DNA of 51,240 nucleotides. Origin: Zetaproteobacteria bacterium (GTDB taxonomy: Bacteria > Bdellovibrionota_B > Oligoflexia > Oligoflexales > Bog-1112). The stretch's first letter is position 1, and each line of letters opens with the position of its first letter. The notes beneath the pieces were generated by a model that saw nothing but the letters and a program-made list of their open reading frames with translations, was not told the DNA's origin and made no database searches. The stretch covers positions 1-51,240 of the forward strand of contig CANFEH010000002.1 of the NCBI GenBank assembly GCA_947445855.1, given 5' to 3'. Positions 4,122 through 46,714 of this stretch are shown here, one piece after another. Both the position numbers and the translations under genes were made by a program.

Positions 4122-4162
4122 CCATCACGATCTGAAACGTTACTACATAGGATTTTTAGACT

Positions 4163-7596: not shown

Positions 7597-7623
7597 CCTT
7601 GGATTTTTTTCCAAGGTTTTTTT
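7597..7623. terminator. Bidirectional intrinsic terminator
   Basis: CCTTGG (7597-7602), 8-nt loop, CCAAGG (7611-7616), then T7. An A-rich tract upstream allows function on both strands. It sits between convergent genes ending at 7566 (+) and 7622 (-). Confidence 0.7.
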
Positions 7624-9109
7624 ATCCCACATTCTTTCCTAGCTCAGATGATTTTAGAAAAGTCTCAAATAAAGAAGCTCCTTTCTCCTCGCTCATATCG
7701 CGACTAAGCTTTTTCATTGTTGTTAAATAAGTTTCATCTGGAGAGTAAAAAAGTAAAAAAATATCTTCCCTCACTTGATTACGCATTAAACAATCCGGGC
7801 TCTCTTCTTCCTCTAAACAAAATTTTTCCGCTTTAAGCTCATTTTTCAGCACAGTTCCAAGAGCTTTCCAGCGACCATACACTGGGTCAAAATCCATCTT
7901 TTCTTGACCTTTTTCAAGAGTGAATGTTTGTGATAAGTGATTTTCTAATTCTTTCTGCCATGATGAGTTTCTTAACTTCATTTGTTCATGAAGAAGAAGC
8001 ATATGAAACCGAGACACCGAAATAAGCTCACTAAACTTCAAGGAGTTATTTAAAACAGCTTCTTTGTTATCTGCTGTCAAAGTCTCGAAAAAAGCATCTT
8101 CTTGTAATTTCATTTTTTGCTGTTCTTGTCTTGTCTCTAAAAGAAAAAAAATATCATTTTCAATTCTCATCAGTTTTAAAATTTCTTCTCTTTTTAATAT
8201 TTTTTCCTCACCTAAAAAAGCTTCTTTTAAAACCTCTCCATCCTCTAAGCTTTTACACTTAAGTAAATAAAGAATTTCTCTCGAATATTTAATAAAAAAA
8301 TCTTCTTGTTTTTCTTTGACAGAAGAATCATCCGAATAGCGATAAACCCTATTCATAAAAGCTGAAAGTTTTTCTATATCAGCTTCCCTTAGAGTATTTG
8401 GATTATCTTCGCACAATTCAAAAAAACGCTCTGCTAAACGAGACAAAAGAGAAAAGTCAATTTCTTCTCCCTCTAAATTCGTGTCGTATATACCATAGGT
8501 TTTTAGAAATTCTGAAAAAATTTGTTCTAATTTATTAGCATAGAATTTTTGTCTTAAAGAATTAAGAAGCTCTTTTGCTCTTAAAGAAGCTCTTATCAGA
8601 ACAGCCTCAAAGTTTTTTTCATCTGTACGCCGTTCTAAAACAAGCTTATAAAAAATTTTATTACATTCTTCTTTTTGTTTTTTTAAATAAATTTGCATTT
8701 CATTTATAATATTTGCGAAAGCTTCCAAATCAAGACTTGAATCAAATTGAAGCTCATCTTTTTCTGATAAAAAAATAGAATTTTCACCTCTTCTATTTAA
8801 ATCTATTTTTTCTAGTAAATATTTCTTTTCTCTCTCTTCCCCCAAAGTACAAAGGGTTACATACAAAAAATCATCGTGAACTAAAACATTTTTAATTAAA
8901 CCAACAAAAGGAAGATAAGAATCTACCTCGTAAAACAAAAGAATAGAAAATGTGATGTTTTTTTTAAAAAATTTTTTTTCAAAAGCAGAAATTTTTTGGT
9001 CGTTACGAGAGATTTCTAAAAAATTTTTTCGCAACCCTTGGGAATAAGAGAGATCAGAATAAATGAATAAAAAAAACAGCAAACCTCTAAGACAATTTTT
9101 TGGAGCCAT
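7622..9109 (-). CDS. Hypothetical secreted protein, E/K/L-rich, no recognised domain
   Basis: Long ORF. ATG at 9109 gives the signal peptide MAPKNCLRGLLFFLFIYSDLSYSQG and is preceded by AGGGG. The ORF-track TTG at 9190 adds 27 aa of doubtful value. Confidence 0.6.
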   Translation of the reverse strand: MAPKNCLRGLLFFLFIYSDLSYSQGLRKNFLEISRNDQKISAFEKKFFKKNITFSILLFYEVDSYLPFVGLIKNVLVHDDFLYVTLCTLGEEREKKYLLEKIDLNRRGENSIFLSEKDELQFDSSLDLEAFANIINEMQIYLKKQKEECNKIFYKLVLERRTDEKNFEAVLIRASLRAKELLNSLRQKFYANKLEQIFSEFLKTYGIYDTNLEGEEIDFSLLSRLAERFFELCEDNPNTLREADIEKLSAFMNRVYRYSDDSSVKEKQEDFFIKYSREILYLLKCKSLEDGEVLKEAFLGEEKILKREEILKLMRIENDIFFLLETRQEQQKMKLQEDAFFETLTADNKEAVLNNSLKFSELISVSRFHMLLLHEQMKLRNSSWQKELENHLSQTFTLEKGQEKMDFDPVYGRWKALGTVLKNELKAEKFCLEEEESPDCLMRNQVREDIFLLFYSPDETYLTTMKKLSRDMSEEKGASLFETFLKSSELGKNVG

Positions 9110-9217
9110 AAGAAAAACCCCTAAAAGAAATATTTTATTTTTAAAAAAAATCCTAGGGGAAGCTCTAGAGGGTTTGGTGGATGAAATCAAGACATCATGA
9201 AAAACACATAAATCCTC

Positions 9218-11758: not shown

Positions 11759-11794
11759 TGGTTCATCTTGTAAAAAAAGTTTAAAGTAAAGCTA

Positions 11795-12519: not shown

Positions 12520-13710
12520 CTACTCATCAAACATATCATCTTTGAAGTCATTTTTTGGTATCCATAGGCCGTCTTCTTTCTCTTTTTTTACTTGACTCAG
12601 ATATTTTATAATTTCAGAACTACTTTCACTAGAAGCAATTTTATAAACATCCACATCTGCAGATGTTTTAATATCGGAGTTAGCCCCTCTTTCCATCACA
12701 GCTTTTACAATCTGTAAATCATTTGTTTTTACTGCATACATGAGAGTGGTCATACCCTCACTATCAGCACTATCTAAATCAACACCCTCTCTTTTAACAA
12801 ATTTAAGAATGATTTTTTTTAAATTTTTCTTTTCTTTTTCAGATACTTTGCCATTTTTACCGTGATATCTATCTAAGGCTTCCATAAGAGCTGTTCTTCT
12901 TGCCATCTTATTCGTTTTAGTTAACATAGATTTCTTAAAACTTTGGGCAGCTTGGTCATAAGTATTAACAGCAACTATTTTCTGAGCAGAAGTTCTATAG
13001 TTTATGTCGTAATCTTTTTCTAACATCAATTCTATAAGCTCAAAATTAGCATGTCTAATAGCTTCACTCATAGGGGTTTTAAAAGTCCTATCTTCCAAGG
13101 TACAATCTGTACCTGCTTCTATAAGATGAATTGCAATAGTATGTTTGTGCTCATTAAGTTCTCCCATTAATGCGTAGTGAAGAGCTGTTCTTGAACTATA
13201 TGCTGCTTTTGTATTAGGATTCAACTCTCTTTTTTCTATTAAAAAGTCAATAATATCAATAGCCCCAGACTCAGAAGCAATCATAGCTGGAGTTTGTCCA
13301 AGTGAGTTAGCACGAACAGGATTAGCACCATAGCTATATAAAAGTTTAAATAAACTTGTTAACCCTCTTTTTGCTGCGTAATGAAGAGGAGTCTCATAAA
13401 CAGTTGAAAGCTCTGTCTCTCCTATCTTATAATTACCTGGAAACTCTTGAAAAACACGGTAATCGTTTAAATCCTTTTTCTTCTCTTTTTCAGTGAGACC
13501 ATCTCCCTGGTAATTAACAATAGTATGAATCAGTGTTTCTTCTTTTTTAGCCTTTATATACTCTAATCTTTCTTTTACTTTGTCATGGTAATCTTTTGGC
13601 TTAGACCTCTTCATATGCTCTAGAATATACCCTGTATGCCCAAGCTCTTTAGCTGAAAGATTTAAGTACGAAAGCAAGAAAAACAAAAAAGAAAATCTGA
13701 CGTACTTCAT
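12520..13710 (-). CDS. Secreted ankyrin-repeat protein
   Basis: ATG at 13710 is preceded by GGAGGG. Signal peptide MKYVRFSFLFFLLSYLNLSA. Several ANK repeats, e.g. TPLHYAAKRGLTSLFKLLYSYGANP, QTPAMIASESGAIDIIDFLI, RTALHYAL, MTTLMYAVKTNDLQIVKAVMERGAN. Confidence 0.85.
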   Translation of the reverse strand: MKYVRFSFLFFLLSYLNLSAKELGHTGYILEHMKRSKPKDYHDKVKERLEYIKAKKEETLIHTIVNYQGDGLTEKEKKKDLNDYRVFQEFPGNYKIGETELSTVYETPLHYAAKRGLTSLFKLLYSYGANPVRANSLGQTPAMIASESGAIDIIDFLIEKRELNPNTKAAYSSRTALHYALMGELNEHKHTIAIHLIEAGTDCTLEDRTFKTPMSEAIRHANFELIELMLEKDYDINYRTSAQKIVAVNTYDQAAQSFKKSMLTKTNKMARRTALMEALDRYHGKNGKVSEKEKKNLKKIILKFVKREGVDLDSADSEGMTTLMYAVKTNDLQIVKAVMERGANSDIKTSADVDVYKIASSESSSEIIKYLSQVKKEKEDGLWIPKNDFKDDMFDE

Positions 13711-13913
13711 TATGCCCTCCAAAATCAATAAAAAATAAGATTCCTGAAAGATAAAGAAAAACACCTGTAATTCAAAGTTGAAAGAGCAAAATTTTTTTAA
13801 AAATCACACTAACCAGCTAAAATTATAGAAAAAAATTTTAACCCATAGATTTAAAAAGAAAAAAAAGTATGATTCAAAAACTTTTTCTAGATTTGGTCTT
13901 TGCGGAGCGCTCT

Positions 13914-15026
13914 ATGCTGAAAAATTTTCTTTTTCTTCTTCAAATTTCTTTTCTTTCTTCTTGTTCTACAGAAGCACCAAGAGAGACTTATTTATTTTCA
14001 AAAATCATCAATTCAGACTATAGAGGTCTTTTATTTACAGCCCGCAAAGGTATCCACTCTTCTATTTTATATTGGTATAATTTCAAAACAGGAATAGTTG
14101 AAGAAATTTTAAATGGACAAAGTGGTGATCCTAAGCTCTTTCTTATCAAAGATAAAATTTATCTTTTTAATAGAATGGGTTTTCAAAAAAACTATCTTAT
14201 TCTTGACACTCAAAATAATTTTGAACTTTTGCAACCAGAGAAATCTTCTTTTTTATCCTCAGGGGATCCCTATTTTTTACTTCCTATCACAGAAGATTAC
14301 AGTCTTCTCAGCTGTCTTTCTGAAGGAAAAATTAAACTCTTTAATCTAAAATCAGGTGTATTAAACGACTTATATACTGATAATATGTTTAGACCAGGAA
14401 ACCTAATTCTAAAAAAAGACTCTTCAGGGAAGAAACATATTTACACTCTTTCTCTTGGACTTAATGACTTTTGGAGCCCTGATAGCTCTCAAAAAATATA
14501 TGATTTTATCTTAGAAAAAAATCCAAATTTCACTTTAAAATTACAGAGTACAAAAAAAACAAATGCTTCTTATTCCGAAACTCTGTTCGAAAATACTATG
14601 AATTCTAACGAACTCTTTAGTTTTTCTTTAGCCTACGAAAAAGGAGAAAGCTCTTATGACAGAATTAATCTTTCAAATTTAGATGTCACACAAGCTCATG
14701 ACCTTTCAGATTTAAGCTCTTATGAAAAGTTTGGATCTCCTGTTTTGACTCAAGATGGTTTTTTCCTAACACCAGTAAAAGAAAAAACATCAGGAGAGAG
14801 AAAAATAAAGTCAATTTTTTTTAACCCATTTAAAGAAACAGACTATCATCCCTTAGAGAGGAAGACATCCTCCATATCTCTTGTCTATGACAAATCAAAT
14901 AATTGTGTTTTTATTGGTGAAAATGAAGAAACAAAAAATGGGAAAATTCATTTTTATTGTGGAGATAAAAAAGTTTTCACCGAAGAAATTGATCTTGACT
15001 TCTATGAGGGAGTTCTTATTCCTTGA
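13914..15026 (+). CDS. Hypothetical lipoprotein (possibly beta-propeller-like)
   Basis: ATG at 13914 follows GGAG. Signal peptide with lipobox FLSSC. Recurrent blade-like segments (SGDPKLFLIKDKIYLFN, SGDPYFLLPI, KHIYTLSLG) faintly resemble YVTN/YncE-type repeats. The stop overlaps the next gene's start. Confidence 0.55.
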   Translation: MLKNFLFLLQISFLSSCSTEAPRETYLFSKIINSDYRGLLFTARKGIHSSILYWYNFKTGIVEEILNGQSGDPKLFLIKDKIYLFNRMGFQKNYLILDTQNNFELLQPEKSSFLSSGDPYFLLPITEDYSLLSCLSEGKIKLFNLKSGVLNDLYTDNMFRPGNLILKKDSSGKKHIYTLSLGLNDFWSPDSSQKIYDFILEKNPNFTLKLQSTKKTNASYSETLFENTMNSNELFSFSLAYEKGESSYDRINLSNLDVTQAHDLSDLSSYEKFGSPVLTQDGFFLTPVKEKTSGERKIKSIFFNPFKETDYHPLERKTSSISLVYDKSNNCVFIGENEETKNGKIHFYCGDKKVFTEEIDLDFYEGVLIP

Positions 15027-16960
15027 ATAAAATTTTCTTTCTAATTTTTCTTATCCTTTCAAAACAAGCCTTCCCTGTAAAAAACTTAGTGATTATAACA
15101 GGAAAGAAACGTTCAAGAATTGAAACAAAAAACCCTAGCTCAAAAGGTTCTTTCAATGCAGATGAAATCAGCAGCACTACTTTAAAAAGTTATACTAAAA
15201 CAAAATCGTCCCTAGAAACACAAGAAGGGTCTGAAATAAAAGCAAACGATTTTATCCTGCCAAAAATCAGAGGTCAAAGACAAGAGAACACAGAAATTTG
15301 GTTTAACGATAGTCTGATCTATGATCCATGGCTCAGCCTCCCTATTCCTTATAGTTTTAATTCGAAGCAATTTACTCAAGTAAATATTTTTGAAGGTCTA
15401 TCTCCTTATGAAATAGCTTCTTCAAATCCTTTTGGACTACTGCAGTATCAAAAAAACAGTTTTAAAGACAAATCTCTTGTTGGCGCAAGGTTTGGGGTCC
15501 CTTTTGGAAAAAACTTCTATTCTCAAATAGAGAGAAAGAAATTCATCCTAGAAAATTTTTCTTTTAGCTTGTTTTTTTCTCTTCACGACACAAAAGGCGC
15601 TTACTCTTACTGGAACAACGAAGGAACACTATTCAATACAAAAAATGGAAGAACAGAAACACTTCAACACAATGGCCAAGACTCTTATTTCATATCTCCA
15701 TTTTTATCTTATTACTACAAAGAAGTTTCTTTTAATTTCTATAGTTTTATCTATAAAGAAAAAAGAGAGCTACCTCTGTTAAATAACCTAAGTGAAGAAA
15801 TGTCTCTTGATAATTTCTCATTTTTGAATCACTTTGAACTAACATGGGCTCCTAAAAAAGAAGAAAAAGCCCCTATAAAACCAGAGAAAATCTCACTTAC
15901 TTTTAATCACCAAAAAGGTGAGAAAAATTACACGAGCTCTTATTACAAAACAGAAAGCAACTCAGATCATTTTCGCTTCTCTTTTATGCCTTTTTGGGAA
16001 AACTTTTTTTTTAAAACACATTTATCCCTAGCTTATAGCTATTCGCAAGTTTCTTATCTACTAAAAAATGAACTTTACAGACCAGAACGAAATGCTTTTG
16101 ATTTTTACACAGCCTATCAAATAAAATTCTTCTCTCCTTTTTTTTTAGAAAATAAATACCATCTCAGATTTTCTAAAGACTCTAAAAAACAAACTAACCG
16201 TGAACTGAGTTTTAGCTACTCTTTTTCTCTTTTCTATAAAAAACAAAAAGGAAATATCTATTTCCAATTTGCTCAGCAAAAAAGACTACCAAATCTTCTA
16301 GAAGAACTAGGAGACAATCACTTCATAAGTGAATCAGAAGGACTACGCTCTGAAAAAAGCACACACCTTGAATTAGGTGGAAAAATTGCAGGAAAAAATT
16401 CTTTTATGGGAAATGTGTTTTGTGATTTTTCTTCAGATAAAATCCGTTTCATCCCTGCTAGCTTTCAAAAAGTGACAGCTCTTAATCTTTCCAAAACAAG
16501 AACTTTTGGATTTGAACTAAGCCATAATTTAAAAACTTATTATTTTGATATGCTTTCTGGTTTTTCTTATCTTCATAACTTAGACACATCAAATCAAAAA
16601 AAATATACACTTATTCCTCTCTCTTCTTTTTATGTTTTTACAAATCATATGGAAATAAAAGTGAAAGAGATTTTCTTTCATTTAAGCCAAAGGCTAAATG
16701 GACCTTACTATTATGACAGTGCTAATACTATACTTATAAAACCGCATCTCTTGAGTGATCTTGCCACTGGCTATAGCTATAAAATAAAAAATACTCTCTT
16801 CTCAGTGAAATTTAGTTTGAATAATCTTTTTGATGTAAACTCTCTAGAACTAGAAACAAGAGGGAAAAAGAAAAACTTTGGAAAAATTCCACGGAGTGAA
16901 TTTTACGGAATACCTCTCCCAGGAAGAACTTGGGCAATCGACCTAGAAGCTAAATTTTAA
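15023..16960 (+). CDS. TonB-dependent receptor-like outer-membrane protein
   Basis: Signal peptide. TonB-box-like NLVIITGKK. Plug-like region (LPKIRGQRQENTEIWFNDSLIYDP). Long beta-rich region. Terminal ...GRTWAIDLEAKF ending in Phe. TTG start in a TTGA overlap with the upstream lipoprotein gene. Confidence 0.7.
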   Translation: MNKIFFLIFLILSKQAFPVKNLVIITGKKRSRIETKNPSSKGSFNADEISSTTLKSYTKTKSSLETQEGSEIKANDFILPKIRGQRQENTEIWFNDSLIYDPWLSLPIPYSFNSKQFTQVNIFEGLSPYEIASSNPFGLLQYQKNSFKDKSLVGARFGVPFGKNFYSQIERKKFILENFSFSLFFSLHDTKGAYSYWNNEGTLFNTKNGRTETLQHNGQDSYFISPFLSYYYKEVSFNFYSFIYKEKRELPLLNNLSEEMSLDNFSFLNHFELTWAPKKEEKAPIKPEKISLTFNHQKGEKNYTSSYYKTESNSDHFRFSFMPFWENFFFKTHLSLAYSYSQVSYLLKNELYRPERNAFDFYTAYQIKFFSPFFLENKYHLRFSKDSKKQTNRELSFSYSFSLFYKKQKGNIYFQFAQQKRLPNLLEELGDNHFISESEGLRSEKSTHLELGGKIAGKNSFMGNVFCDFSSDKIRFIPASFQKVTALNLSKTRTFGFELSHNLKTYYFDMLSGFSYLHNLDTSNQKKYTLIPLSSFYVFTNHMEIKVKEIFFHLSQRLNGPYYYDSANTILIKPHLLSDLATGYSYKIKNTLFSVKFSLNNLFDVNSLELETRGKKKNFGKIPRSEFYGIPLPGRTWAIDLEAKF

Positions 16961-18585: not shown

Positions 18586-19206
18586 CTAAATTTTGTTGTT
18601 ACTTGTCTTTTTTAGAGCAAAAAATAAAATCCCACCGACAAGACAAACACCAAGAACCGTATAAAAGCCCCACTGAAACTGACGTAATTTTTCAGAAAGC
18701 AGCTCTAAATTAGAACTTAACTTATAGGCTAACCAAACCCAAACAGGAACAGAAACAAGGGCTGCTATTCCATCAAAAAAAAGAAATTTCCAATATGGCA
18801 CACGGTAACTACCTGCAGAAAAGAAAACGGCAACTCGAAGCCCTGGTGCAAAACGTGCCAAAAAAACAGACTTGTCGCCATGCTTCTGAAACCAACCTGC
18901 TATTTTCTTTTCGCGAGGTTCTGTAAAAATATAACGAAAGAGAAAACTCTTTTTAAGTTTTTCGCCGAAAGTTTTCCCTAAAAAGAAAACTGTAGAATCT
19001 CCTAATAAAACCCCTAAAAAACAAACAAGAAGAGCATACCAAAAGTTTACATACCCAAGCCCAGAGAGAAGACCTGCTGCTAGCAAAGGAACATCTTCAG
19101 GCAACGGAAAACCAAAGCCACAAGCCAATAATACAAGAAATATCAAATAGATACCCTTGTCCCCGTAAGTTTCTAACCAACTTAAGAAGCTAAGAACCTT
19201 ATCCAT
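18586..19206 (-). CDS. dedA: DedA-family (SNARE-associated/VTT) membrane protein
   Basis: GFGFPLPEDVPLLAAGLL motif followed by multiple TM helices. 206 aa. Confidence 0.8.
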   Translation of the reverse strand: MDKVLSFLSWLETYGDKGIYLIFLVLLACGFGFPLPEDVPLLAAGLLSGLGYVNFWYALLVCFLGVLLGDSTVFFLGKTFGEKLKKSFLFRYIFTEPREKKIAGWFQKHGDKSVFLARFAPGLRVAVFFSAGSYRVPYWKFLFFDGIAALVSVPVWVWLAYKLSSNLELLSEKLRQFQWGFYTVLGVCLVGGILFFALKKTSNNKI

Positions 19207-19370: not shown

Positions 19371-21536
19371 TTAAGGACTGATCTCAGTAGAAGAACTAAG
19401 AGCTGCTCGAGGCGAGAAGAAATTTTCCTCTGTCGAAATAAAAGCAGCATCTCGCAGCTTTAAAAAACAAAAAGATGATGGAGGCCCTAAAGAAATTATT
19501 TTTTGGAATTTTTCTGAAAGCTCTGTGTAACCAAAAGCCCCCACATCTTGCACACCCAGTAAAAACAACAAGGAAATAAATTGTCTTTGTGCAAAAGAAG
19601 GGAAGGACTGGTTTTTTAATTGAATCTCACGAAGTAAACAGGCCTCAGAATTCAAAACAGGGAGGCTTTTCAAAGGAACCATTAAAACTGAAGTCACATT
19701 TCCTGCTACTAAAAAATATTTTGTTAAAGCCACAGCATAAATAAATTCACTCATACTCATAGGCGAATCAAAAGAAGGTTCTAGCTTTAAAGCTTTAATT
19801 CCTAATGTTTCTTTCTGTAACATTATAAAGCTATTTAACTTAGACAAAAAAACTTTCCACAAAAAACCTGTCCCATCTACACGAGCATTGAGTTCAAGCT
19901 TTGCTGTTGTAGACAAACCAGACAAATGAGCTTGCTTATGCAACGTAATAATCTCTGAATTTGTCAAAGCTCCTTCAAACTCTTGTGAAGAACTTTCAAC
20001 CATATTGACATGAAGAGAGACAAGTTCTGTAAAAATTTCTTTCAGCTCTTTTTTTTTAGATTGTGCTACTTTCCACAAAAACAAAAATCCAGATAGAACA
20101 ACTTGAAGATCAGGCATTTGTTCTCTTAACATTCTTAACCTAAGGAGAAGACCTTCCCAGTGAGCAATAAAATCGCTTTCATTTTCATCTTCAGCATAAG
20201 AAGACAAATCAAGACGACAGAAAACTACACTATATTCTGTTTTTGCTTTGAGTAGAACAGGCCAAAACTCGCTCAATTCACCTTCAAGGTTCATGTCCAC
20301 AGAAACTCCAAAACTCATCTCTTTCAAAGGAGAAGAAGAACAAGAAGAAGAAAGAGCTGTGTTATTATTATCTTTTACCAAATCAAAAAAATCACTGTTC
20401 TTTGCAAAGTGAATCGAAGCTTCAAGAAAAAAATCATAATCTTTTGGAGTTGGTAAAATATCATAGAATCTCTGGCTCAATTCTTTTTTATTTTCAAAAG
20501 ATTTTTCTTCTAAACTTTTTTCTTCCACCGGTGTTTTACGTGCCCGCAAAATAAGATCACGAACCCTTTGTCTTGTTACAAAAAAATCTTGATCACCTGA
20601 CTCATTCGCCCAAACTGATCCAATAGCACCGGCACCAAAGGAAGTAGCTACCTGAGCAAGATCAGGACCATAGATTGTCCAATTAGCTCGAATCGTTTTA
20701 ATATTATCAAGAAACAAACGTGATAAAGCAATGAATCTCAAATCCTCTGAAGCAGATGGTATTTCTTTTACCTCATCTCGCAGAATAGAAAAACTACTAG
20801 GATATGGTGTGAGAGAACTCACTCCTCCTGTTCTATCTTGAAGATCTCTTATGGATTGTATAAATTCAAAATAAGATTTTTCTTGTCCTGTATGAGAATA
20901 TGGCAAGCTAAGACTAGATGTAAGACCTGCGTCATGAGCCATTTCATGAATTAACAAAAAATCTTTTAATTTAAAATCTCGTGTAATCAGTTTCTTTGTA
21001 TACACAGAAAAAATTTGTGTATTCACATCTGCAAGACCATCTAAACCAGCTTCTTTGAAAGAATTTAAAATATCCACCCACGGCAAAGTAGTTTCTTTTG
21101 CAAAAAAATCAATCTCTACTGCATTAAAAGCTCGCACGAAAAGATTTGGAAAATAGGATTTCAGTTTTTTAAAAACTTCCAAATAAAAATCAAACTTCTT
21201 TTCATGAAAAATTTCCCTTCCAATATAAACTTCACTCACACCATGCTTAATTGCTTTTTCTAAAGAAAAAAGATGTTCTGAAAAAGATCTCCTTTGAGAC
21301 AACGCTCCCTGGTTTAAAAAAGATGAATTTTCTGCTTGAAGAAAAAATATTTCAGGTAGGCCAAAAGCATAAACAAGATTATAAGAAATTTGAGTCCCAT
21401 TTATTTTCTTTTGAAAAAAATCAGCAAGCTCACCAATAGCAAATAAATCTTCTTCATAATAAAGACTGATCAAATCTTCTAAAGAAAGCCTTTCCCCTCT
21501 TTCTATTTTTCCTGCTATAGCAACAAAAGAACCCAT
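19371..21536 (-). CDS. Two-domain MqnC/MqnE/CofH-like protein lacking the radical-SAM Cys motif (function unknown)
   Basis: N-terminal GERLSLEDLISLYYEEDLFAIGELADFFQKK..ISYN, mid SLPYSHTGQEKSYFEFIQSIRDLQDRTGG and RFIALSRLFLDNIKTIRANWTIYGPDLAQVATSFGAGAIGS all resemble futalosine-pathway/FO-synthase radical-SAM enzymes. No Cys occurs in the first ~395 aa. The second half repeats the pattern more weakly. Confidence 0.5.
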   Translation of the reverse strand: MGSFVAIAGKIERGERLSLEDLISLYYEEDLFAIGELADFFQKKINGTQISYNLVYAFGLPEIFFLQAENSSFLNQGALSQRRSFSEHLFSLEKAIKHGVSEVYIGREIFHEKKFDFYLEVFKKLKSYFPNLFVRAFNAVEIDFFAKETTLPWVDILNSFKEAGLDGLADVNTQIFSVYTKKLITRDFKLKDFLLIHEMAHDAGLTSSLSLPYSHTGQEKSYFEFIQSIRDLQDRTGGVSSLTPYPSSFSILRDEVKEIPSASEDLRFIALSRLFLDNIKTIRANWTIYGPDLAQVATSFGAGAIGSVWANESGDQDFFVTRQRVRDLILRARKTPVEEKSLEEKSFENKKELSQRFYDILPTPKDYDFFLEASIHFAKNSDFFDLVKDNNNTALSSSCSSSPLKEMSFGVSVDMNLEGELSEFWPVLLKAKTEYSVVFCRLDLSSYAEDENESDFIAHWEGLLLRLRMLREQMPDLQVVLSGFLFLWKVAQSKKKELKEIFTELVSLHVNMVESSSQEFEGALTNSEIITLHKQAHLSGLSTTAKLELNARVDGTGFLWKVFLSKLNSFIMLQKETLGIKALKLEPSFDSPMSMSEFIYAVALTKYFLVAGNVTSVLMVPLKSLPVLNSEACLLREIQLKNQSFPSFAQRQFISLLFLLGVQDVGAFGYTELSEKFQKIISLGPPSSFCFLKLRDAAFISTEENFFSPRAALSSSTEISP

Positions 21537-21607
21537 TAAACCCTCTTAAAATAAGCAAAAAAAGAGACTTTTTTTATAATATTATAACTATTATTTATCT
21601 TTAAAAC

Positions 21608-22558
21608 TCAAGCAGAGTAGGCCTTAAACACAGCATTTGTACCAAACTGATCCACCAAAGCTTGGTGCTGATCTTCTCTCTTCCGGGGATCTAAAAGAGC
21701 AAGTAAACAACCACCACCACCAGAACCTGTTATTTTTACAGCAAGGGCACCTAAATCTAAAATTTCCTTCGCAATCTGAGAAGCCTTTTGTGTCACGACA
21801 CCAAGATCATTTAGAAGACTTCCTGCTTCCATTAAAATCTCAGAAGCTTTAAAAATATTTCCCGTTGTGAGAGCTTTTATTAATCCTTTGGCAAGAGCAT
21901 CAAAGCGTTGTAGGAGGGCTGCTCCTTTTTTACTAGCAAAAATTTTTCTCGTCTTTTCTACCATGGTGAAAGTTTCTTTTCTCTCTAGAGTATCCACCAA
22001 TACAAAAGGAAAAAAGTCACTCCGTCCCACCTTTTCGTTTTGCCAATTAAAAGAACATAAAAGAGGTTTTTTACCTTTTTCAAAAATAAGAGGCTTTTCA
22101 TAAGCAATCACAGAAGTGTCTAAACCAGAAGGAAAACCATGAAAAGCCTCCTCCAGAGTGTTCGCCATTTTAGCTAAATCTTCCTCTGATAAAATCGATT
22201 CAAAATAAAGGGATAATAATCGAAGGAGCCCCACACATAAAGCAGCTGAAGAACCAAGACCAGAGCCAATTAAAATATCTGATTGAACACGAAAGGAAGC
22301 TTTAAAAATATCTTGTCCAAAGAGGGCACAAGCTTTTGCAAGTAAATCTTGAAAACGAACAGAGAGTTTTTCTAGTTTTTTTCCTCGTACAAAAAAACTA
22401 TGCTCAACTTCTGAGTCACTAAAGAACATCTCAAGATTCATGCGAATACCACTAAGAGGCAAAGCCACTGCTTGTGCTCCATGAACCACAGCGTGCTCTC
22501 CGATAAGAATAACTTTCCCAGAAGCACTCGTTTGATAGAATCTGCTTTTTTCTCTCAT
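21608..22558 (-). CDS. mvk: Mevalonate kinase (GHMP kinase)
   Basis: GKVILIGEHAVVHG, GSGLGSSAA (GHMP motif II) and TGSGGGGC (motif III). 316 aa. Confidence 0.9.
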   Translation of the reverse strand: MREKSRFYQTSASGKVILIGEHAVVHGAQAVALPLSGIRMNLEMFFSDSEVEHSFFVRGKKLEKLSVRFQDLLAKACALFGQDIFKASFRVQSDILIGSGLGSSAALCVGLLRLLSLYFESILSEEDLAKMANTLEEAFHGFPSGLDTSVIAYEKPLIFEKGKKPLLCSFNWQNEKVGRSDFFPFVLVDTLERKETFTMVEKTRKIFASKKGAALLQRFDALAKGLIKALTTGNIFKASEILMEAGSLLNDLGVVTQKASQIAKEILDLGALAVKITGSGGGGCLLALLDPRKREDQHQALVDQFGTNAVFKAYSA

Positions 22559-22615
22559 GCGATCATCCTAGTGATCAGGCTTAGCTATTTTTTTCACCAA
22601 ACCTATCCCAAAAAA

Positions 22616-23869
22616 TTATTCATTAATAGCAGAAACTCGCATCCTCTGCTCATTGATATTCTTTGCATGTAAGCCCATATGACCTTTTTGAATACCTTCT
22701 GTTGCTAAAGCTTTTAAAGCTGATAAGTTCTGCGCCAAACCAACACAAGCAACAATTTCAGCTAACTCGTCTGCTGTAGGTGTTCCTAAAATTTTTAAGG
22801 CTAGCTGAGCCATTGGATGTAATTTTGTCACTCCCCCGACTGTTCCAAGAGCCATAGGGAGCTCAATAACTCCAAAGAGTTCTCCCTTCAAAGTTTTTGA
22901 CCATTTTGTAAGGGGTTTATAAGAGCCACTTCTAGCAGCAAAAGCATGAGCTCCAGCTTCTACAGCACGCCAATCATTTCCTGTTGCAATGACAACAGGA
23001 TCAATACCATTCATCACACCTTTATTGTGAGTGCTAGCTCTCAGCACATCAAAATAAGCAAACTCATAAGCACGAATAATTTGATCAACTACAAGCTCCC
23101 CATCTCCTTTAGGACTTAAAGTCTCTGGAGAAATAATACAACTTGCTTCGACTGTTCTTTCAAGAGTCAAATTAGTTAGAATGCGTAAACCTACTTCACA
23201 ATTTCCAAGAAGTTTTGCCAAAAAAACAGATAACTTCTCGCACAAGGTGTTTACAATATTCGCACCCATAGCATCGCAAGTACCAACATGAAGAAGAACA
23301 ACAAGACAAGAAAGTTCGGGAATTGTATACCAAGTGAGATTTGTAACCCCACCACCTCGAGTCAACAAACGCTCTTGACCACTATTAGCAAAAGCTATGG
23401 CTTCTTCTTTATGATCTGAAAGAATTCTTTCAAAATCACAACTAAGATCAGGAAAAAATTGCATCTGTCCTGTCATCTGAGGATTTTTATTGACTCGAGC
23501 TTTGAAACCACCCCGAGCAGCAACTAACTTAGCTCCATGGCTTGCTGCTGCTACTACACTGCTCTCTTCTACAGCCATTGGGACTAAATAAGGTTTACCG
23601 TTGATCACAAAATTTGGAGCAACCCCAAGAGGAAGGGAAAAAACACCAACTGTATTCTCAATAAATAGATGAGCCAAATGCTTATCTAGGTTTCCATAAT
23701 TAGAAAGAGTTTCGAGTTGAGAACGCTCCAAACCCGCAAAATCAGCTAAGGTCTCTAAGCGCTCTTCCTCAGAAAAATTATAAAATCCTGGTATCACTGA
23801 AGATTTGTTATTGTTTTTAAGCAAGGTTCTAACTCTCCCAACATAGGAACTTGGCGGAAAAATTAACAC
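22616..23869 (-). CDS. mvaA: Class II hydroxymethylglutaryl-CoA reductase
   Basis: ENTVG, VEESSVVAAAS, DAMGANIVN, THNKGVMNGIDPVVIATGNDWRAVEAGAHAF and LATEGIQKGHMGLHA closely parallel Pseudomonas mevalonii MvaA. GTG start. Confidence 0.92.
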   Translation of the reverse strand: MLIFPPSSYVGRVRTLLKNNNKSSVIPGFYNFSEEERLETLADFAGLERSQLETLSNYGNLDKHLAHLFIENTVGVFSLPLGVAPNFVINGKPYLVPMAVEESSVVAAASHGAKLVAARGGFKARVNKNPQMTGQMQFFPDLSCDFERILSDHKEEAIAFANSGQERLLTRGGGVTNLTWYTIPELSCLVVLLHVGTCDAMGANIVNTLCEKLSVFLAKLLGNCEVGLRILTNLTLERTVEASCIISPETLSPKGDGELVVDQIIRAYEFAYFDVLRASTHNKGVMNGIDPVVIATGNDWRAVEAGAHAFAARSGSYKPLTKWSKTLKGELFGVIELPMALGTVGGVTKLHPMAQLALKILGTPTADELAEIVACVGLAQNLSALKALATEGIQKGHMGLHAKNINEQRMRVSAINE

Positions 23870-24040: not shown

Positions 24041-24844
24041 TTGATTTCCTGCGAAGGTGTCCATAAATCTTACGGTTCTTTTCAACTCCTTAGGAATATC
24101 ACTTTTCATATCAAAAAAGGGGAAAAAGTCAGCCTGATTGGCCCAGGAGGTTGTGGTAAGACTACTCTTCTAAAACTTCTCCTCGGACTTGTTCCCTTTG
24201 AAGGTGGCCATACATCTATCCTTGGAACTGATATGCAAAACAGTAAAAGATATATTCAAAACGAAATTTTTAAAAAAATTGGTGTCTCTTTTCAAAATGG
24301 CGGGCTTTTTGACTTCATGACTGTAGAAGAAAATCTTAATTTTGCCATGATACACATGACAGAAAAAAATGAACTCACACGAATGGAGACCATTAAGACA
24401 TTACTCTCTGCTGTAAAGCTCCCCGGTACAGAAAAACTCTACCCACACGAACTTTCAGGAGGAATGAAAAGAAGAGTTGGAATAGCTAGAGCCTTAGCAA
24501 CAGATCCCCTCGTTGCTTTATTTGACGAGCCCACTTCAGGCTTAGACCCAGTGACCTCTACGATTATCCTCGAGATGATTTCTAATTTAGCTACCCAGAA
24601 AGAAGGGATGACTCTTCTTGTTGCTACATCAAACGTAGAGATTGCTATCCGTTTTGCGGATCGCATTATCATCGTCCACAATGGAAAAGTTATTGCAGAT
24701 GGGCCTTGGCGTTCTCTTCTTATAGAAGGATCCGATTGGGTAAAACATTTTTTGTCTGTACGACTCATTGGACTAGACTTGGAATATGCAAGAGATCTCA
24801 ACCTACCGGATGAGTTTATTGAAAAACATTGGAACTCAAAATAA
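24041..24844 (+). CDS. ABC transporter ATP-binding protein (MlaF-like), no adjacent permease
   Basis: Walker A GPGGCGKTT, signature LSGGMKRRVGIARAL, Walker B LFDEPTSGLDP. TTG start 9 nt after AAGGAG. Confidence 0.8.
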   Translation: MISCEGVHKSYGSFQLLRNITFHIKKGEKVSLIGPGGCGKTTLLKLLLGLVPFEGGHTSILGTDMQNSKRYIQNEIFKKIGVSFQNGGLFDFMTVEENLNFAMIHMTEKNELTRMETIKTLLSAVKLPGTEKLYPHELSGGMKRRVGIARALATDPLVALFDEPTSGLDPVTSTIILEMISNLATQKEGMTLLVATSNVEIAIRFADRIIIVHNGKVIADGPWRSLLIEGSDWVKHFLSVRLIGLDLEYARDLNLPDEFIEKHWNSK

Positions 24845-26318: not shown

Positions 26319-27119
26319 ATGCAAAAGATTCTCTTTTTATTTGGTCTATTTTCTTATTTTTCTTTTAACTTGCTCGCTACTAAAGAAAGCACTTTTGTGA
26401 TTGGGTCCATTGGGGATTCTGTAACTACAGCAAATAACGCAAGAAGCTGGGGAGATAACGAAGGAACAAACTGGAGTACAGGGCACATTGACCGTTATGG
26501 TGTTAAAAGCCACTACCAAAGACTCACAAGCTTTTTAAAAAACCAAGAAGTCATAGCTGTAAATGTAGCTGCTTCAGGATCTACATCAGCTGATATAGGT
26601 CTCCAAGTTGATGCTCTACTACAGAATAACCCTAACTACGTGACTCTTCTTGTTGGTGGAAATGACGCTTGTAGTTGGTCTAGCAATTATGAAAGAAACC
26701 TAGATGTCTTCAAAACAAGAATTGAAAACGCTATTGTCAAACTGATCAACCACAATTTTGGGATTAAAATTCTTCTTGTTTCAGTCCCTAATATGTACCA
26801 CCTTTGGCAACTTGGACGAAATGATTGTGGATGGCTTTGGGATTTAAGTGGAACTTGCCCCGATCTCTTAAGTTCTTATTCAACAGAAAGTGATCGATCT
26901 TCTTTTGTCAATCGACTGAGTGAAATCAATAAAACCTTCATAGAACTACAACAAAAATATTCTACTCACGTGAAACATGATGCCAGTGTGGCCAGTTATA
27001 AATTTGAAAAAGAAGACGTTTCAACAAAAGACTGCTTCCACCCTTCTCTTAAAGGACAGAGCAAACTAGCTGAAATCACTTGGGGGCATTCTTGGTTCTC
27101 TAAACCTTTAAGAGACTAA
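26319..27119 (+). CDS. Secreted SGNH/GDSL-family hydrolase (lipase/esterase)
   Basis: Signal peptide. Block I IGDSVT, block III GGNDAC, block V DCFHP (DxxH). Confidence 0.8.
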   Translation: MQKILFLFGLFSYFSFNLLATKESTFVIGSIGDSVTTANNARSWGDNEGTNWSTGHIDRYGVKSHYQRLTSFLKNQEVIAVNVAASGSTSADIGLQVDALLQNNPNYVTLLVGGNDACSWSSNYERNLDVFKTRIENAIVKLINHNFGIKILLVSVPNMYHLWQLGRNDCGWLWDLSGTCPDLLSSYSTESDRSSFVNRLSEINKTFIELQQKYSTHVKHDASVASYKFEKEDVSTKDCFHPSLKGQSKLAEITWGHSWFSKPLRD

Positions 27120-28686
27120 GAACTGTTTCACTACCAAGTTCTTTAATAAAACCTGGAAGCCTTGGGCCTTTATCTTTTCCAACAAGACATTGATAAAGGG
27201 CTTGAAAGACATCTTTAGATTCACAGCTTACTTGATTAACTACATGTTCCCAAAGCAGCTCATTAATTACTTTGGAGTCTAAAGATTCAAGATCTGTTTT
27301 TGCTAGCCACTCATAACAGAGCTTAACAGCTTTTTCTTGCTCTTCTGAAAAAACAAAATCAAGCGCTCCTTCTCTCAGAGTGTAGCGAAAATCTCCTGTG
27401 GCATGATGAGTTACCCAGTACCACGCCCTCACAGCTCTTGGTTCAAAAACACTCCAATCATGACCTTCTTCTGCATAGTACTTCTCAAAAGCTCTTTTTA
27501 AGTTTCCATTACAAATTTGAAGACGATTAGAAAGCATTCTAAAAGAAGCTCTCTTCTTCACAGGAATGTTTTTAATATCCTCTGTCACAGAAGAAAGTTC
27601 ATAAACTCTTAAACTTGTTTTATCTTTATTATCAAGAGAGGGTTGATCTCTTAACTCAAAATATTTCGCTTCTAAACGATCAAACTCTTCATAAATTTTG
27701 AAGACATCCTCATCGAGAGCAATAGCAAAATCATGATTTGGTCTTTGAGAAACAAAAATCCATCTTAAAATTTCAGGTTCATAAACAGTTTCAAGATCAG
27801 AAAGGGTGTAGAGATCTCCTTTAGAAGAAGACATTTTTCCTCCACCACCCTTAATTTTTACAAAATCATATTGAAGATAAACAGGAGGTTCTCTATTCCA
27901 GAGTTCTTTAACAATTTTTTTACCTGTATCAAAAGAGCCACCTTCACTTGAGTGATCTTTTCCACCTGGCTCGAAATCTACTTTTTCATATGCCCATCTC
28001 ATTGGCCAATCAACACGCCAAATTAATTTTAAATTAGAGCTATCTTTGATCGCAAAAGTTTCTTTGTTATCACAATGACTACAGTGATAAGAGTAGTTTC
28101 CATTGCCTTTGTACTCTTGTGTATGCATGTCATCTTTTTTGCATTTAGAGCAATAAACAACTGTAGGAACCCAAGTGTCTGGCAGAGGTTCTGTTCGATG
28201 TTGATCTAAAATATCCTTGATCTTAGCTTTGTTTTCTAAAGCAAAAATCATATTTTCTGCGTAAGCGCCTTTAGCGTATTCGCTCTCTTGATAAATAAAC
28301 TCTGGAGCAATTCCCACTGTGTCTAATTCTTTTTCAAAAATTTTACAGCGGCCATCAGAGTAAGAAGCAGCTTGTCCCCATGGATCTGGAATACGAGCAA
28401 TAGACTCTCTCAAATATTTTTCAAAAACTTCTGGATTAGGAAGATCGGCTGGAACTTTTCTGAAAGTATCAAAATTATCCCAACTGTATATAAATCGCAC
28501 TTTCTTACCAAGCTTTCTCAAAGCTCTAGCGACTAAGTCTACTGTGATGACTTCTCTAAAATTTCCAAAGTGCACATTCCCGCTCGGAGTTATTCCACTT
28601 GCAAGAGTGTAGATCTCTTTGTCACCTTGTTCTCTTATAATTTTCATAGCAGCAATATCAGCCCAATGGGTAGAAACTGGTTGCAT
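27100..28686 (-). CDS. lysK: Lysine--tRNA ligase, class I
   Basis: HIGH-type motif HFGNFRE and KMSKS-type KMSSSKG. N-terminal THWADIAAMKII resembles spirochaete/archaeal class I LysRS. I prefer the ATG at 28686 over the TTG at 28713. Confidence 0.9.
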   Translation of the reverse strand: MQPVSTHWADIAAMKIIREQGDKEIYTLASGITPSGNVHFGNFREVITVDLVARALRKLGKKVRFIYSWDNFDTFRKVPADLPNPEVFEKYLRESIARIPDPWGQAASYSDGRCKIFEKELDTVGIAPEFIYQESEYAKGAYAENMIFALENKAKIKDILDQHRTEPLPDTWVPTVVYCSKCKKDDMHTQEYKGNGNYSYHCSHCDNKETFAIKDSSNLKLIWRVDWPMRWAYEKVDFEPGGKDHSSEGGSFDTGKKIVKELWNREPPVYLQYDFVKIKGGGGKMSSSKGDLYTLSDLETVYEPEILRWIFVSQRPNHDFAIALDEDVFKIYEEFDRLEAKYFELRDQPSLDNKDKTSLRVYELSSVTEDIKNIPVKKRASFRMLSNRLQICNGNLKRAFEKYYAEEGHDWSVFEPRAVRAWYWVTHHATGDFRYTLREGALDFVFSEEQEKAVKLCYEWLAKTDLESLDSKVINELLWEHVVNQVSCESKDVFQALYQCLVGKDKGPRLPGFIKELGSETVLSLLKV

Positions 28687-28820
28687 CTTCCTTGCCTTTC
28701 TGTCAAATCTCAAAAGAGTCTTCTATAACGCTTTAACATAATTCAAAATTAGAGGAAATAGCCCTAAGGGCTTGGGAAACGCCATTCTAACACAATAATT
28801 ATACCGAGGATAGATAGAAT

Positions 28821-32826: not shown

Positions 32827-32931
32827 TTTCCACATTGATGCGAATTAAAAAATAAAAATTTTATGCTAAAATAAATAAACGCTAAAAATCTCTTAAACCG
32901 AAGAGACAACACACTCGTGGAGAATTTTTTT

Positions 32932-34287
32932 ATGACCCTAAAAAATATTTTTTCCTCTTTTATTTTTTTTCTTTTCTTAATGGCCTCATCACTCCCTGCT
33001 GAAGAAGTTTTAAAAAAAGCACCTCAAAAACAAAATTTACAATCAACACCTAAAAAAACACTTGAAGAACTGGCACTCGAAAAAATACAAGCTGAAACTA
33101 AAAAACTACAAGCTGAAGAAGATTTAAAATCATTAAAATTTAGACAATCTATTGCTAATGAAAAACAGAAGCTTGAAGCACTAGAAGTTAAAGCTGCTCT
33201 TGAAAAAAAAGAAAAAGAAAACTCCAAAAAAGCTCAACAAGAAGATTTTGAAAAAATAGATTTAGAGTTAATGGCTTCTCAAAAAAAACACACACTAGCC
33301 ACACAGAAACTCAAAGAAGAAATTGAACTCCTATCTCTAAAAAATCAGCTTCTTTTAGAAAAATATAAAGAAGAATCTCAAGTCTTAGCTGATATGCAGC
33401 TCAGAGCAAATATGGACCGAGAAAAACTCCTCTTAACTCAAATGTTAAGTGAAATTAAAAATAAAGATCTAGAACAAAATCTAAAACTTCGCATACAAAA
33501 GGAAGCTTGGAATAGTCAAACAAACAAAGAAATAGAATACCCTCTTAACCCTATTGGAAATGATGTTCTAAGAATCAGCGACCGAAGAATAGAACTCAAT
33601 GGAGTTATTATTTATGGGGTTGCTGACTACATCACAGAACGCATTCATTTTTTTAATAACAAATCTAAAACAGCTCCTATCTTTATTGTTATTGGACGCT
33701 CACCTGGAGGTTCTGTGATGGAAGGTTACAGAATTTTAAAGGCAATGGCTTCAAGTGAAGCTCCCATTCATGTTCTTGTTAAATCTTTTGCAGCTAGCAT
33801 GTCTGCTGTTATCACATCCTTAGCTGATGAATCTTATGCTTATGATAACGCTATTATTTTGCATCACCAACTCTCAGGGGTAAAGTATGGAAACGTAGCA
33901 GAACAAAAAAAATCTCTTGAGTTATTCCAAGAGTGGGGAAAACGCCTTCATGAACCAGTAGCAAAGAAAATGGGGATTTCTTTAGAAAGTTTTTACAAAA
34001 AAATGTATGAACATGACCCAATGGGTAACTGGGAAGAGTTTGCTGACAAAGCTAAAAAACTCCGTTGGGTAAACCACCTTGTAGATCGAGTACAAGAAGA
34101 AAGCTACAATGAAAATCCAAACACAGAGAGTTACCTTGCAAAGAAAAAAATAGAACAAATAAACTTTGCTCTTTGGAATGGTAAAAATATAGATGACAAA
34201 GGAAAAACAAAAGCTCAGATGAGCTTGCCAAAGCTAGATGCTTTTGATTTTTACTTTATTCATAACAATGACCAGTATCAATGGTAA
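32932..34287 (+). CDS. Exported ClpP-fold (S14-like) serine protease with a long N-terminal coiled coil
   Basis: Signal peptide MTLKNIFSSFIFFLFLMASSLPA. About 180 aa of heptad-like E/K/L/Q-rich sequence. ClpP-like core IGRSPGGSVMEGYRILKAM...FAASMSAVI...IILHHQLSG with Ser and His in the ClpP catalytic positions. Confidence 0.7.
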   Translation: MTLKNIFSSFIFFLFLMASSLPAEEVLKKAPQKQNLQSTPKKTLEELALEKIQAETKKLQAEEDLKSLKFRQSIANEKQKLEALEVKAALEKKEKENSKKAQQEDFEKIDLELMASQKKHTLATQKLKEEIELLSLKNQLLLEKYKEESQVLADMQLRANMDREKLLLTQMLSEIKNKDLEQNLKLRIQKEAWNSQTNKEIEYPLNPIGNDVLRISDRRIELNGVIIYGVADYITERIHFFNNKSKTAPIFIVIGRSPGGSVMEGYRILKAMASSEAPIHVLVKSFAASMSAVITSLADESYAYDNAIILHHQLSGVKYGNVAEQKKSLELFQEWGKRLHEPVAKKMGISLESFYKKMYEHDPMGNWEEFADKAKKLRWVNHLVDRVQEESYNENPNTESYLAKKKIEQINFALWNGKNIDDKGKTKAQMSLPKLDAFDFYFIHNNDQYQW

Positions 34288-35827: not shown

Positions 35828-35938
35828 AAATAAAAGCTTCACAATGCTTCTCTCTTTAATCAAAAAATTGGATGGTATTATTAATCGCGAGAAACTAACA
35901 CAAAAAGAATAAAAAAGGAATGAGGAAATAGATTTTTC

Positions 35939-35972
35939 CAAAAAAAATAAGCTAATAAAACTATTAGCTTAT
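35939..35972 (-). terminator. Intrinsic terminator of the peroxiredoxin gene
   Basis: Perfect 11-bp stem ATAAGCTAATA (35947-35957) / TATTAGCTTAT (35962-35972) with a 4-nt loop. Followed on the minus strand by T7. Confidence 0.8.
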
Positions 35973-45970: not shown

Positions 45971-46714
45971 ATGTATGTTTTGTTAATTGGTTTTTTTATT
46001 TTTGGTCTTTTGTTTTTTAACACGGTGAAAATTCTTGCAGAATATGAAAGAGCCGTTATTTTTCGTCTCGGCCGTTTTGTAGGTGTGAGAGGGCCTGGGC
46101 TTATTATCTTGATTCCTGGGATTGAAACCATGAGTCGCACGGACCTGAGAACAGTGACTATGGATATCCCTTCACAAGACATCATTACCCGCGATAACGT
46201 TACTTTAAAGGTAAACGGTGTTGTTTATTTTAGAGTAAATGTTCCTGAAAAATCGATTCTTGCTGTTGAAAACTTTCTTCACGCCACAGGCCAAATAGCT
46301 CAAACCACTTTACGCTCTGTCATTGGTCAATTTGAGCTGGATGAAATTCTTTCTCAAAGAGACAAAATTAACATTCGCCTCCAAACCATTCTTGATGAAC
46401 AAACAGAACCTTGGGGAATCAAAGTTTCTACAGTAGAGGTAAAAGCTATCGACTTGCCACTTGATATGCAAAGAGCTATGGCGAAACAAGCTGAAGCAGA
46501 AAGAAACAAAAGAGCAAAGGTCATCTCTGCAGAAGGTGAACTAGAAGCTTCTAAAAAACTAGCGGAAGCAGCTGCTATACTCGATACCCAAAAAAATGCT
46601 ATTGTTCTACGCTATCTGGACACTATGAAAGAAATCTCTTGTGGAGAAGGCAAAAGCACAACTTTCTTCCCTCTTCCTATCGACTTCTTACATAAGATAA
46701 CATCAAAATCTTAA
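45971..46714 (+). CDS. SPFH/band 7 (stomatin-like) protein
   Basis: N-terminal [31 protein letters not shown] and a coiled [17 protein letters not shown] region. GAAGGAG RBS. Confidence 0.9.

Follow-up and report, generated by a model that had tools for sequence, protein, structure and literature searches.

The iron-sulfur/S-adenosylmethionine (SAM) site is the defining feature of radical-SAM enzymes; radical-SAM-type enzymes that do without a CX3CX2C motif exist as well, e.g. Dph2 and ThiC. The described systems closest to the protein analysed in this work are the aminofutalosine synthase MqnE, its relative MqnC, and several fusion proteins in which one or two such barrels are combined in a single chain. 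A conserved radical-SAM descendant without iron-sulfur/SAM site was not found to be described in searches of the literature. Here, a stretch of 51,240 nucleotides from a bacterium of the Oligoflexales (assembly GCA_947445855.1, contig CANFEH010000002.1, positions 1 to 51,240), referred to as the window, was analysed with respect to one gene, designated X, which lies behind the genes for HMG-CoA reductase (hmgR) and mevalonate kinase (mvk). An earlier annotation made from the letters alone (the sequence-only reading) had singled out its product as an internally duplicated, MqnC/MqnE/CofH-like protein. Our results indicate that gene X probably encodes a pseudo-radical-SAM descendant of the lineage's own MqnE which has been kept for a non-radical role. 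The relevant features of the gene are as follows.

19371..21536, minus strand: gene X (open reading frame confirmed, ATG start), coding for a 721-aa protein with two cluster-less MqnE-family barrels
20514..21518, minus strand: N-domain, residues 7-341, MqnE-like barrel, delimited by the matches to TIGR03700 and PDB 6xi9
21336..21386, minus strand: residues 51-67, SYNLVYAFGLPEIFFLQ, the stretch in place of the CX3CX2C [4Fe-4S] loop, located in the 6xi9 alignment
19374..20501, minus strand: linker and C-domain, residues 346-721, the other MqnC/MqnE-type barrel, strongly degenerate and lacking a cluster motif, recognised with hhalign, AlphaFold and Foldseek
19932..20003, minus strand: residues 512-535, VESSSQEFEGALTNSEIITLHKQA, the C-domain block of highest conservation, situated at the fourth main barrel strand (510-514 in the model) and immediately behind it, extending into the next helix

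The protein contains four cysteines (positions 399, 440, 633 and 690), none within residues 1-398, and the pattern CX3CX2C is absent from all 721 residues. Cysteine count and missing motif thus agreed with the sequence-only reading, and every peptide block quoted there was present in the translation. A word-indexed search yielded three orthologues with 94, 83 and 62% identity, all of them Cys-less; C440, C633 and C690 are invariant among these and the window protein. As the three orthologues were assembled independently and possess the same uninterrupted frame without the motif, a frameshift, fusion artefact or assembly error hiding a Cys motif, which had been considered at the outset, was excluded. 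In the source database Cys-less members are named only "hypothetical protein", while intact members (see below) are named "aminofutalosine synthase MqnE".

Residues 7-341 aligned end to end with the MqnE model TIGR03700 (E 1.9e-54, 184.9 bits), yet at a score below the curated cut-off of 434.55 bits that defines an MqnE equivalog. The N-domain also matched the MqnC model TIGR03699 (E 7.4e-42; 143.4 bits, with a cut-off of 428.1 bits not reached), CofH models, and the sequence of the solved MqnE structure 6xi9 (E 1.4e-30), in line with the family resemblance proposed earlier for this half. The sole Pfam report for gene X was CofH_C (PF19288) over residues 256-312, with 36.7 bits at a gathering score of 27 bits, and the same scan gave no match of the protein to Radical_SAM (PF04055). 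The stretch SYNLVYAFGLPEIFFLQ aligned with the cluster-loop region of 6xi9 and with NPTNICVMSCKFC of the intact family member P0181, and it is nearly invariant across the window protein and the three orthologues (62-94% identity). Both SAM-binding motifs are gone, with HxxGG reading YIGRE and PGGGAE reading ADVNTQ. When compared with 59 MqnE-type domains that carry CX3CX2C, gene X retained 56 of the 116 columns conserved at ≥90% but none of the cofactor motifs. Lost were the TN-C-x3-C-x2-C loop, HxxGG, PGGGAE, D.DGT and most of N.T.LYGH.E; the elements kept (W/F..H..AH..G, R..QD.T.G, DL...A..RL.LDN, W and FGA) are mostly fold-determining. Judged by its sequence, the N-domain is an MqnE-family barrel that would have no means of canonical [4Fe-4S] cluster or SAM binding. 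Because the cluster and SAM motifs are missing, aminofutalosine synthase activity of gene X is predicted to be absent.

The relationship of the second half to this family was detected only by profile-profile and fold comparison. The window's own C-half had no match in Pfam or NCBIfam, TIGR03699 included, a plain hidden Markov model of the C-domain found nothing among the PDB sequences, and BLASTP against a double radical-SAM fusion reached only E 0.09. With hhalign, an alignment of the C-halves of the window protein and the three orthologues matched an MqnE/MqnC profile at E 1.6e-5. A C-domain profile built from 34 family sequences matched canonical MqnE (probability 99.2%, E 1.8e-19, 309 columns) and also the window's own N-half (98.5%, E 2.1e-15); in the profile scores MqnC was not favoured over MqnE. 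Among relatives' C-domains, 9 of 16 matched the MqnC model TIGR03699 (best E 3.2e-7) and 8 of 16 matched CofH_C. The AlphaFold model of residues 346-721, computed from a 50-sequence alignment, reached a mean local confidence (pLDDT) of 84.7 and a predicted template-modelling score (pTM) of 0.86 and shows alternating strands and helices. Its best PDB matches in Foldseek were MqnE 6xig and 6xi9 (E 2.8e-9, TM 0.62/0.61, about 380 columns), followed by generic TIM barrels with TM values (query-length normalised) of at most 0.41. A full-length model from four sequences was poor (pLDDT 50.5) and unusable for domain packing. A beta/alpha barrel, partial or complete, was hence found in both halves, by full-length homology in the N-domain and by the model in the C-domain. 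The gene X protein is two homologous barrels in tandem, as the sequence-only reading had supposed.

For the block at residues 512-535, an alignment of 16 sequences shows S516, E519, E528 and H533 to be invariant; E521, T525 and H537 are conserved at ≥90%. Residues shared family-wide include D443, G483, W488, S516, E519, E521, T525, E528, H533, H537, K546, E548, W560, E597, P626, G661 and D664. The charged or polar residues D443, S516/E519/E521 and K546/E548 are placed by the model at or just past the C-terminal ends of predicted barrel strands; in barrel enzymes, this is the ligand-binding face. A Cys motif in the C-domain is absent from all family members, and across the family this domain has no conserved cysteine.

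The extent of the family was determined by an exhaustive HMMER search of 1.84 billion sequences, clustered at 50% identity, with a C-half profile seeded by the window protein. It returned 56 cluster representatives at E ≤1e-3 (42 at E ≤1e-10), most of them 640-740 aa long. The window protein carries the family block ESS..E.E..T..E....H with its invariant residues. Named members come from metagenome-assembled genomes of Oligoflexales, Oligoflexus sp., Pseudobdellovibrionaceae and other Bdellovibrionota, and for the window's mvk, too, the closest relatives bearing names belong to Oligoflexus and Oligoflexales. Scans of a genome-contig collection with the full protein and with a five-sequence C-domain alignment gave no confirmed relative. 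A published description of the two-barrel family was not found in the literature on the assembly, on futalosine in Bdellovibrionota, on MqnE/MqnC fusions and on Cys-less radical-SAM pseudo-enzymes. The sequence-only reading was therefore right in so far as no description of a family with this architecture was found, but the architecture is common to about 56 sequence clusters and less exceptional than it had appeared.

Full-length members occur in two forms. In 9 of 34 the N-domain is intact, with CX3CX2C near residue 64, GG, and GGGxE/GGGAE near residue 172, and the same Cys-less C-domain follows it; in the other 25 all these motifs are absent. The Cys-less forms fall into two groups. The window clade fills the old motif positions with SYNLVYAFGLP/IGRE/ADVNTQ. 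A large Cys-less clade (P0192-P0233 of the family alignment; e.g. L010 3913-5979, L011 10001-12025 and L013 10001-11971, where L numbers denote relatives' loci) has Arg-rich conserved motifs of its own, HRY[LI]R, EIR and LDGRG, in place of the cluster loop, GGE and GGGAE. These motifs could form an anion-binding site, which would then have evolved independently of the window clade.

Among the window protein and the three orthologues, the ratio of non-synonymous to synonymous substitution rates (dN/dS, or omega) was 0.13-0.23 and alike for the two halves; dS reached values of about 1.4-1.9. In the same genome pairs omega was 0.13-0.18 for X, 0.19 for mvk and between 0.07 and 0.21 for hmgR, dedA, rnt and aat. 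As its omega is similar to that of mvk and the other neighbours, gene X is not a decaying pseudogene.

The genes next to X in the window are listed here, followed by the arrangements found in the relatives' loci.

21537..21607, minus strand: mvk-X spacer of 71 nt, holding the ribosome-binding site AAGAGGG
21608..22558, minus strand: mvk, mevalonate kinase (TIGR00549 E 3.2e-56, above cut-off)
22616..23869, minus strand: hmgR, class II HMG-CoA reductase (TIGR00532 E 1.7e-111; PF00368 E 1.1e-104)
18586..19206, minus strand: dedA, DedA/VTT-family membrane protein (UptA-like undecaprenyl-phosphate transporter family), directly downstream of X (PF09335 E 2.4e-19)

Window, L001, L002, L006, L012: Cys-less X in the order hmgR-mvk-X-dedA-(rnt)-aat
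L004, L014: intact X in the order hmgR-mvk-X-dedA
L009: intact X in the order idi2-hmgR-(GHMP kinase, probably pmk)-mdd-mvk-mqnA-X-...-dedA, with mqnA directly upstream of X
L010, L011, L013: Cys-less X of the large clade in the order X-HU-(rnt)-GAF/HD-aat, no mevalonate genes

Gene X is the third gene after hmgR and mvk, as had been stated before, and starts 71 nt past the mvk stop on the same strand; AAGAGGG lies ahead of its start and no terminator-like site was found in the spacer. Co-transcription of X with hmgR-mvk is probable, and dedA may belong to the same transcript. The dedA product matched the UptA model NF052604 at E 9.7e-18, below its cut-off. This gene directly follows X in the window, L001, L002, L004, L006, L012 and L014, and a 163-aa gene lies between the two in L009. 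Wherever the sequence reaches, aat is found downstream of X, except for L009 with none within 10 kb. Linkage of X to hmgR-mvk in other genomes, on which the sequence-only reading had made its case depend, was observed (immediately or closely upstream) in 8 of the 11 loci with enough flank, i.e. the window and ten relatives, and was absent in L010, L011 and L013; the genes upstream of X in L010 and L011 are not conserved and match no family. At this locus the window has only hmgR and mvk of the mevalonate genes (21608-23869, minus strand), while in L007 (4734-8987) and L009 (3297-9097) a single operon comprises idi2-hmgR-pmk-mdd-mvk. A plain hmgR-pmk-mdd-mvk operon is present in an Oligoflexus genome that lacks X.

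The position of X had been taken as the slot of a downstream mevalonate enzyme. This was not supported, since the order hmgR-mvk-X-dedA already exists with a normal-looking MqnE as X, and in L009 a full operon is followed by mqnA and X. The linkage is thus an inherited isoprenoid-plus-menaquinone arrangement, and architecture and gene context alike stem from an ordinary MqnE. As far as gene order allows this to be read, the hmgR-mvk linkage is ancestral and would be part of a block joining isoprenoid supply with menaquinone head-group synthesis.

The same loci bear on the order of events. L004, L014 and L009 combine an intact MqnE N-domain with the same degenerate C-domain, so the two-barrel architecture predates the N-domain loss. 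The C-domain is cluster-less in every family member and therefore its barrel degenerated first. The proposal that an already degenerate barrel was duplicated in tandem is contradicted by these loci, as the two halves, in the same slot, degenerated at different times. Neighbour-joining of the C-domains placed the intact P0181 (from L004) with the window clade and P0182, P0183 and P0184 (198 of 200 bootstraps), in agreement with synteny, and the other intact members near the base of the large Cys-less clade. This tree, synteny and the different replacement sequences of the two Cys-less groups together suggest that the N-domain cluster was lost at least twice, independently.

From these observations we infer the following course of evolution. 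The ancestor would have been an MqnE radical-SAM barrel already fused to a second MqnC/MqnE-type barrel without iron-sulfur site, its gene lying in an isoprenoid/menaquinone block of the type (idi2)-hmgR-(pmk-mdd)-mvk-(mqnA)-X-dedA. In the window clade the N-terminal barrel would later have lost its three cluster cysteines and the SAM-binding motifs as well. The resulting protein should have no canonical [4Fe-4S]-SAM site, should generate no 5'-deoxyadenosyl radical and should not act as an aminofutalosine synthase, but has persisted as an intact protein under purifying selection. Its most likely present role, in which we have low confidence as to specifics, is that of a non-radical ligand-binding or structural pseudo-enzyme in isoprenoid-quinone metabolism. 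Common to all members would be the C-terminal barrel's conserved polar face, with Asp, Glu, Lys and His. A pseudo-enzyme, one of the roles offered by the sequence-only reading, or a repurposed barrel is thus favoured, and a cofactor-independent enzyme becomes a minority alternative.

Several observations weigh against parts of this reconstruction. In the N-domain tree all Cys-less forms were joined, on long branches; we attribute this grouping to rate acceleration, and it could be long-branch attraction, but a single loss combined with a domain replacement (swap) in P0181 would fit as well. The large Cys-less clade (L010, L011, L013) lies away from both hmgR-mvk and dedA, and the link to isoprenoid genes may accordingly be historical only. 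The remainder of the 51-kb window is devoid of mqn and men genes. Finally, the N-domains of intact members are 58-62% identical to each other, whereas their C-domains are only 22-27% identical. The C-domain hence evolves like an accessory domain and may be loosely constrained rather than the functional core. After cluster loss, N-domain identity drops to 28-33%, near the level of the C-domain.

Descent from MqnE with retention for a non-radical role was compared with four other explanations. Gene X might still encode an enzyme with new, cofactor-independent chemistry that uses acid/base residues on the catalytic face of one or both barrels, the reaction belonging to menaquinone or isoprenoid metabolism, e.g. 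with a futalosine-type or phosphorylated isoprenoid intermediate. The residues D443, S516, E519, E521, E528, H533, K546 and E548, which the model puts at active-site positions of barrel enzymes, could be read in this way, as could the purifying selection, the operon partners hmgR, mvk and dedA, and the Arg-rich motifs that the large clade gained at the old motif positions. However, H533 and H537 go back to the canonical W..H..AH helix and are not new catalytic residues, the replacement motifs of the two clades differ and so define no common new N-domain active site, the evolutionary rate of the C-domain is two to three times that of a working MqnE domain, and the operon position is older than the cluster loss. 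We therefore regard new chemistry as unlikely. Equally doubtful is the broader proposition that the Cys-less two-barrel proteins form a new class, either cofactor-independent enzymes or metabolite receptors, that evolved repeatedly from a radical-SAM enzyme, performing or controlling, for example, a naphthoquinone head-group or isoprenoid step without radical chemistry in Oligoflexia. If true, it would be one of the rare documented instances in which a radical-SAM barrel was re-tooled after cluster loss and did not simply die.

That gene X is a decaying relic, on its way to a pseudogene in a host-associated lineage that has given up menaquinone head-group synthesis, would account for the loss of all cofactor motifs with 56 of 116 canonical columns kept. 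It would also suit the host-associated look of the genome (ankyrin-repeat proteins, low GC content, an orthologue in a very fragmented assembly; see below), the mevalonate block, which is reduced relative to L007 and L009, and the absence from the equivalent window position of the UbiA-type prenyltransferase of L012. Decay is nevertheless improbable: the frame is intact in four lineages diverged to 62% identity at dS of about 1.4-1.9, omega (0.13-0.23) equals that of mvk, the replacement of the cluster loop is itself nearly invariant, and Cys-less forms have been maintained in 25 clusters (50% identity). A radical-SAM or Fe-S protein of a non-canonical kind, with a cluster held by non-Cys residues, by Cys 440/633/690 or supplied in trans, has precedents among the non-CX3CX2C enzymes, and the three cysteines are invariant in the four close orthologues. 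As no cysteine is conserved family-wide and none occurs in residues 1-398, as the GG and GGGAE motifs that contact SAM are lost too, and as PF04055 is undetected, we consider this very improbable. A divergent MqnA/MqnD-type domain (PF02621) as C-half, corresponding to the MqnE-MqnA fusions of Bacteroidota/Chlorobi, came into question since many such 620-aa fusions were among the next-best full-length matches after the orthologues. This candidate was rejected and is hardly credible, given hhalign probabilities of 0.1-0.2% against MqnA parts, a predicted fold that matches MqnE, and relatives' C-domains that match the MqnC and CofH_C models.

Further observations were made in the window. An ankyrin-repeat protein (12520-13764, minus strand), present also in L001, L006 and L012, has weak matches to Ank effectors of the Legionella Dot/Icm system. 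An NCBI assembly with a contig number above 140,000 is the source of the orthologue P0002, and the GC content is 35%. Together, these features suggest a host-associated Oligoflexia-like bacterium that was sequenced with its eukaryotic host. Between ccmE and the DEAD/DUF3516 helicase gene, L012 has a 236-aa gene and one for a UbiA-family prenyltransferase (19465-21123); both are absent from the window (ccmE-helicase spacer 11759-11794) and from L001, where ccmE abuts the helicase gene. The UbiA-family gene has weak MenA-like matches only and was not assignable to MenA or MqnP. Lysyl-tRNA synthetase (27100-28713, minus strand; syntenic in L006 and L012) is of the archaeal-type class I (TIGR00467 E 1.7e-144), which is uncommon in bacteria. 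Weak family matches point to three membrane-protease-related genes on the plus strand: 32917-34287 (456 aa, ClpP-like domain), 44523-45860 (SppA-like) and 45971-46714 (HflK/C-like). Large open reading frames (373-645 aa) without Pfam or NCBIfam match are located at 3000-5779 (plus), 7622-9190 (minus), 13869-16960 (plus) and 34289-35941 (minus); for the 645-aa frame (15023-16960) this statement is based on precomputed Pfam data for the counterparts in synteny with it. A lipoprotein-like protein and the 645-aa protein form the pair at 13869-16960, which is syntenic in L001, L004, L006 and L012. A 120-aa frame (24439-24801, minus) lies wholly inside the gene of an ABC-transporter ATPase (24041-24844, plus) on the opposite strand and is probably spurious. 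GC skew is negative in all 2-kb bins of the window (cumulative -2.4), consistent with a single replichore.

The gene X family can be described as a family of radical-SAM-derived pseudo-enzymes with a series from intact to degenerate at a single locus. This natural series leads from an intact MqnE with one dead barrel to two dead barrels, the latter probably in at least two lineages. It can serve to study which new uses a radical-SAM barrel may be put to, and is of interest for radical-SAM evolution, quinone biosynthesis and pathway annotation. For the latter it holds a warning, as proteins that score as MqnE, MqnC or CofH by similarity could falsely be counted toward a futalosine pathway that is inoperable through them. 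A further question posed by the series is by which route these Oligoflexia make menaquinone, if they do so at all.

Among described proteins, MqnE (TIGR03700; PDB 6XI9/6XIG from Pedobacter heparinus) resembles gene X in the full-length N-domain alignment, the blocks W..H..AH, LQD.TGG, A.SRL.LDN and FGA, the fold of the C-domain (TM 0.62) and the presence of intact MqnE relatives at the same locus. It differs in that gene X lacks CX3CX2C, HxxGG and PGGGAE, is twice as long and cannot perform the canonical radical chemistry. MqnC (TIGR03699, PRK08445) is similar to the N-domain (E 7.4e-42) and to 9 of 16 family C-domains, but no family C-domain has a cluster motif and that of the window is too divergent for the model. 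The two-barrel proteins with intact N-domain (e.g. MEZ4741891.1 and MFK7823708.1, annotated as MqnE) share architecture, Cys-less C-domain and the hmgR-mvk-X-dedA neighbourhood, whereas their N-domains retain CX3CX2C, GG and GGGAE, and with these the window N-domain shares only about 30% identity. Two homologous barrels in some 720-850 aa likewise make up the tandem double radical-SAM Mqn fusions (P0005, P0006, P0007 and P0021; about 720 aa) and FbiC (CofG-CofH); unlike gene X, these fusions carry CX3CX2C in both barrels, and they are no close relatives of the window protein (26-27% identity, in the N-half only). In the roughly 620-aa MqnE-MqnA fusions found in Bacteroidota, Ignavibacteria and Chlorobi an MqnE domain is also joined to a second domain of the menaquinone pathway, but their C-domain, PF02621, has a periplasmic-binding-protein-like fold and is unrelated to the second barrel of gene X (hhalign probability 0.2%).

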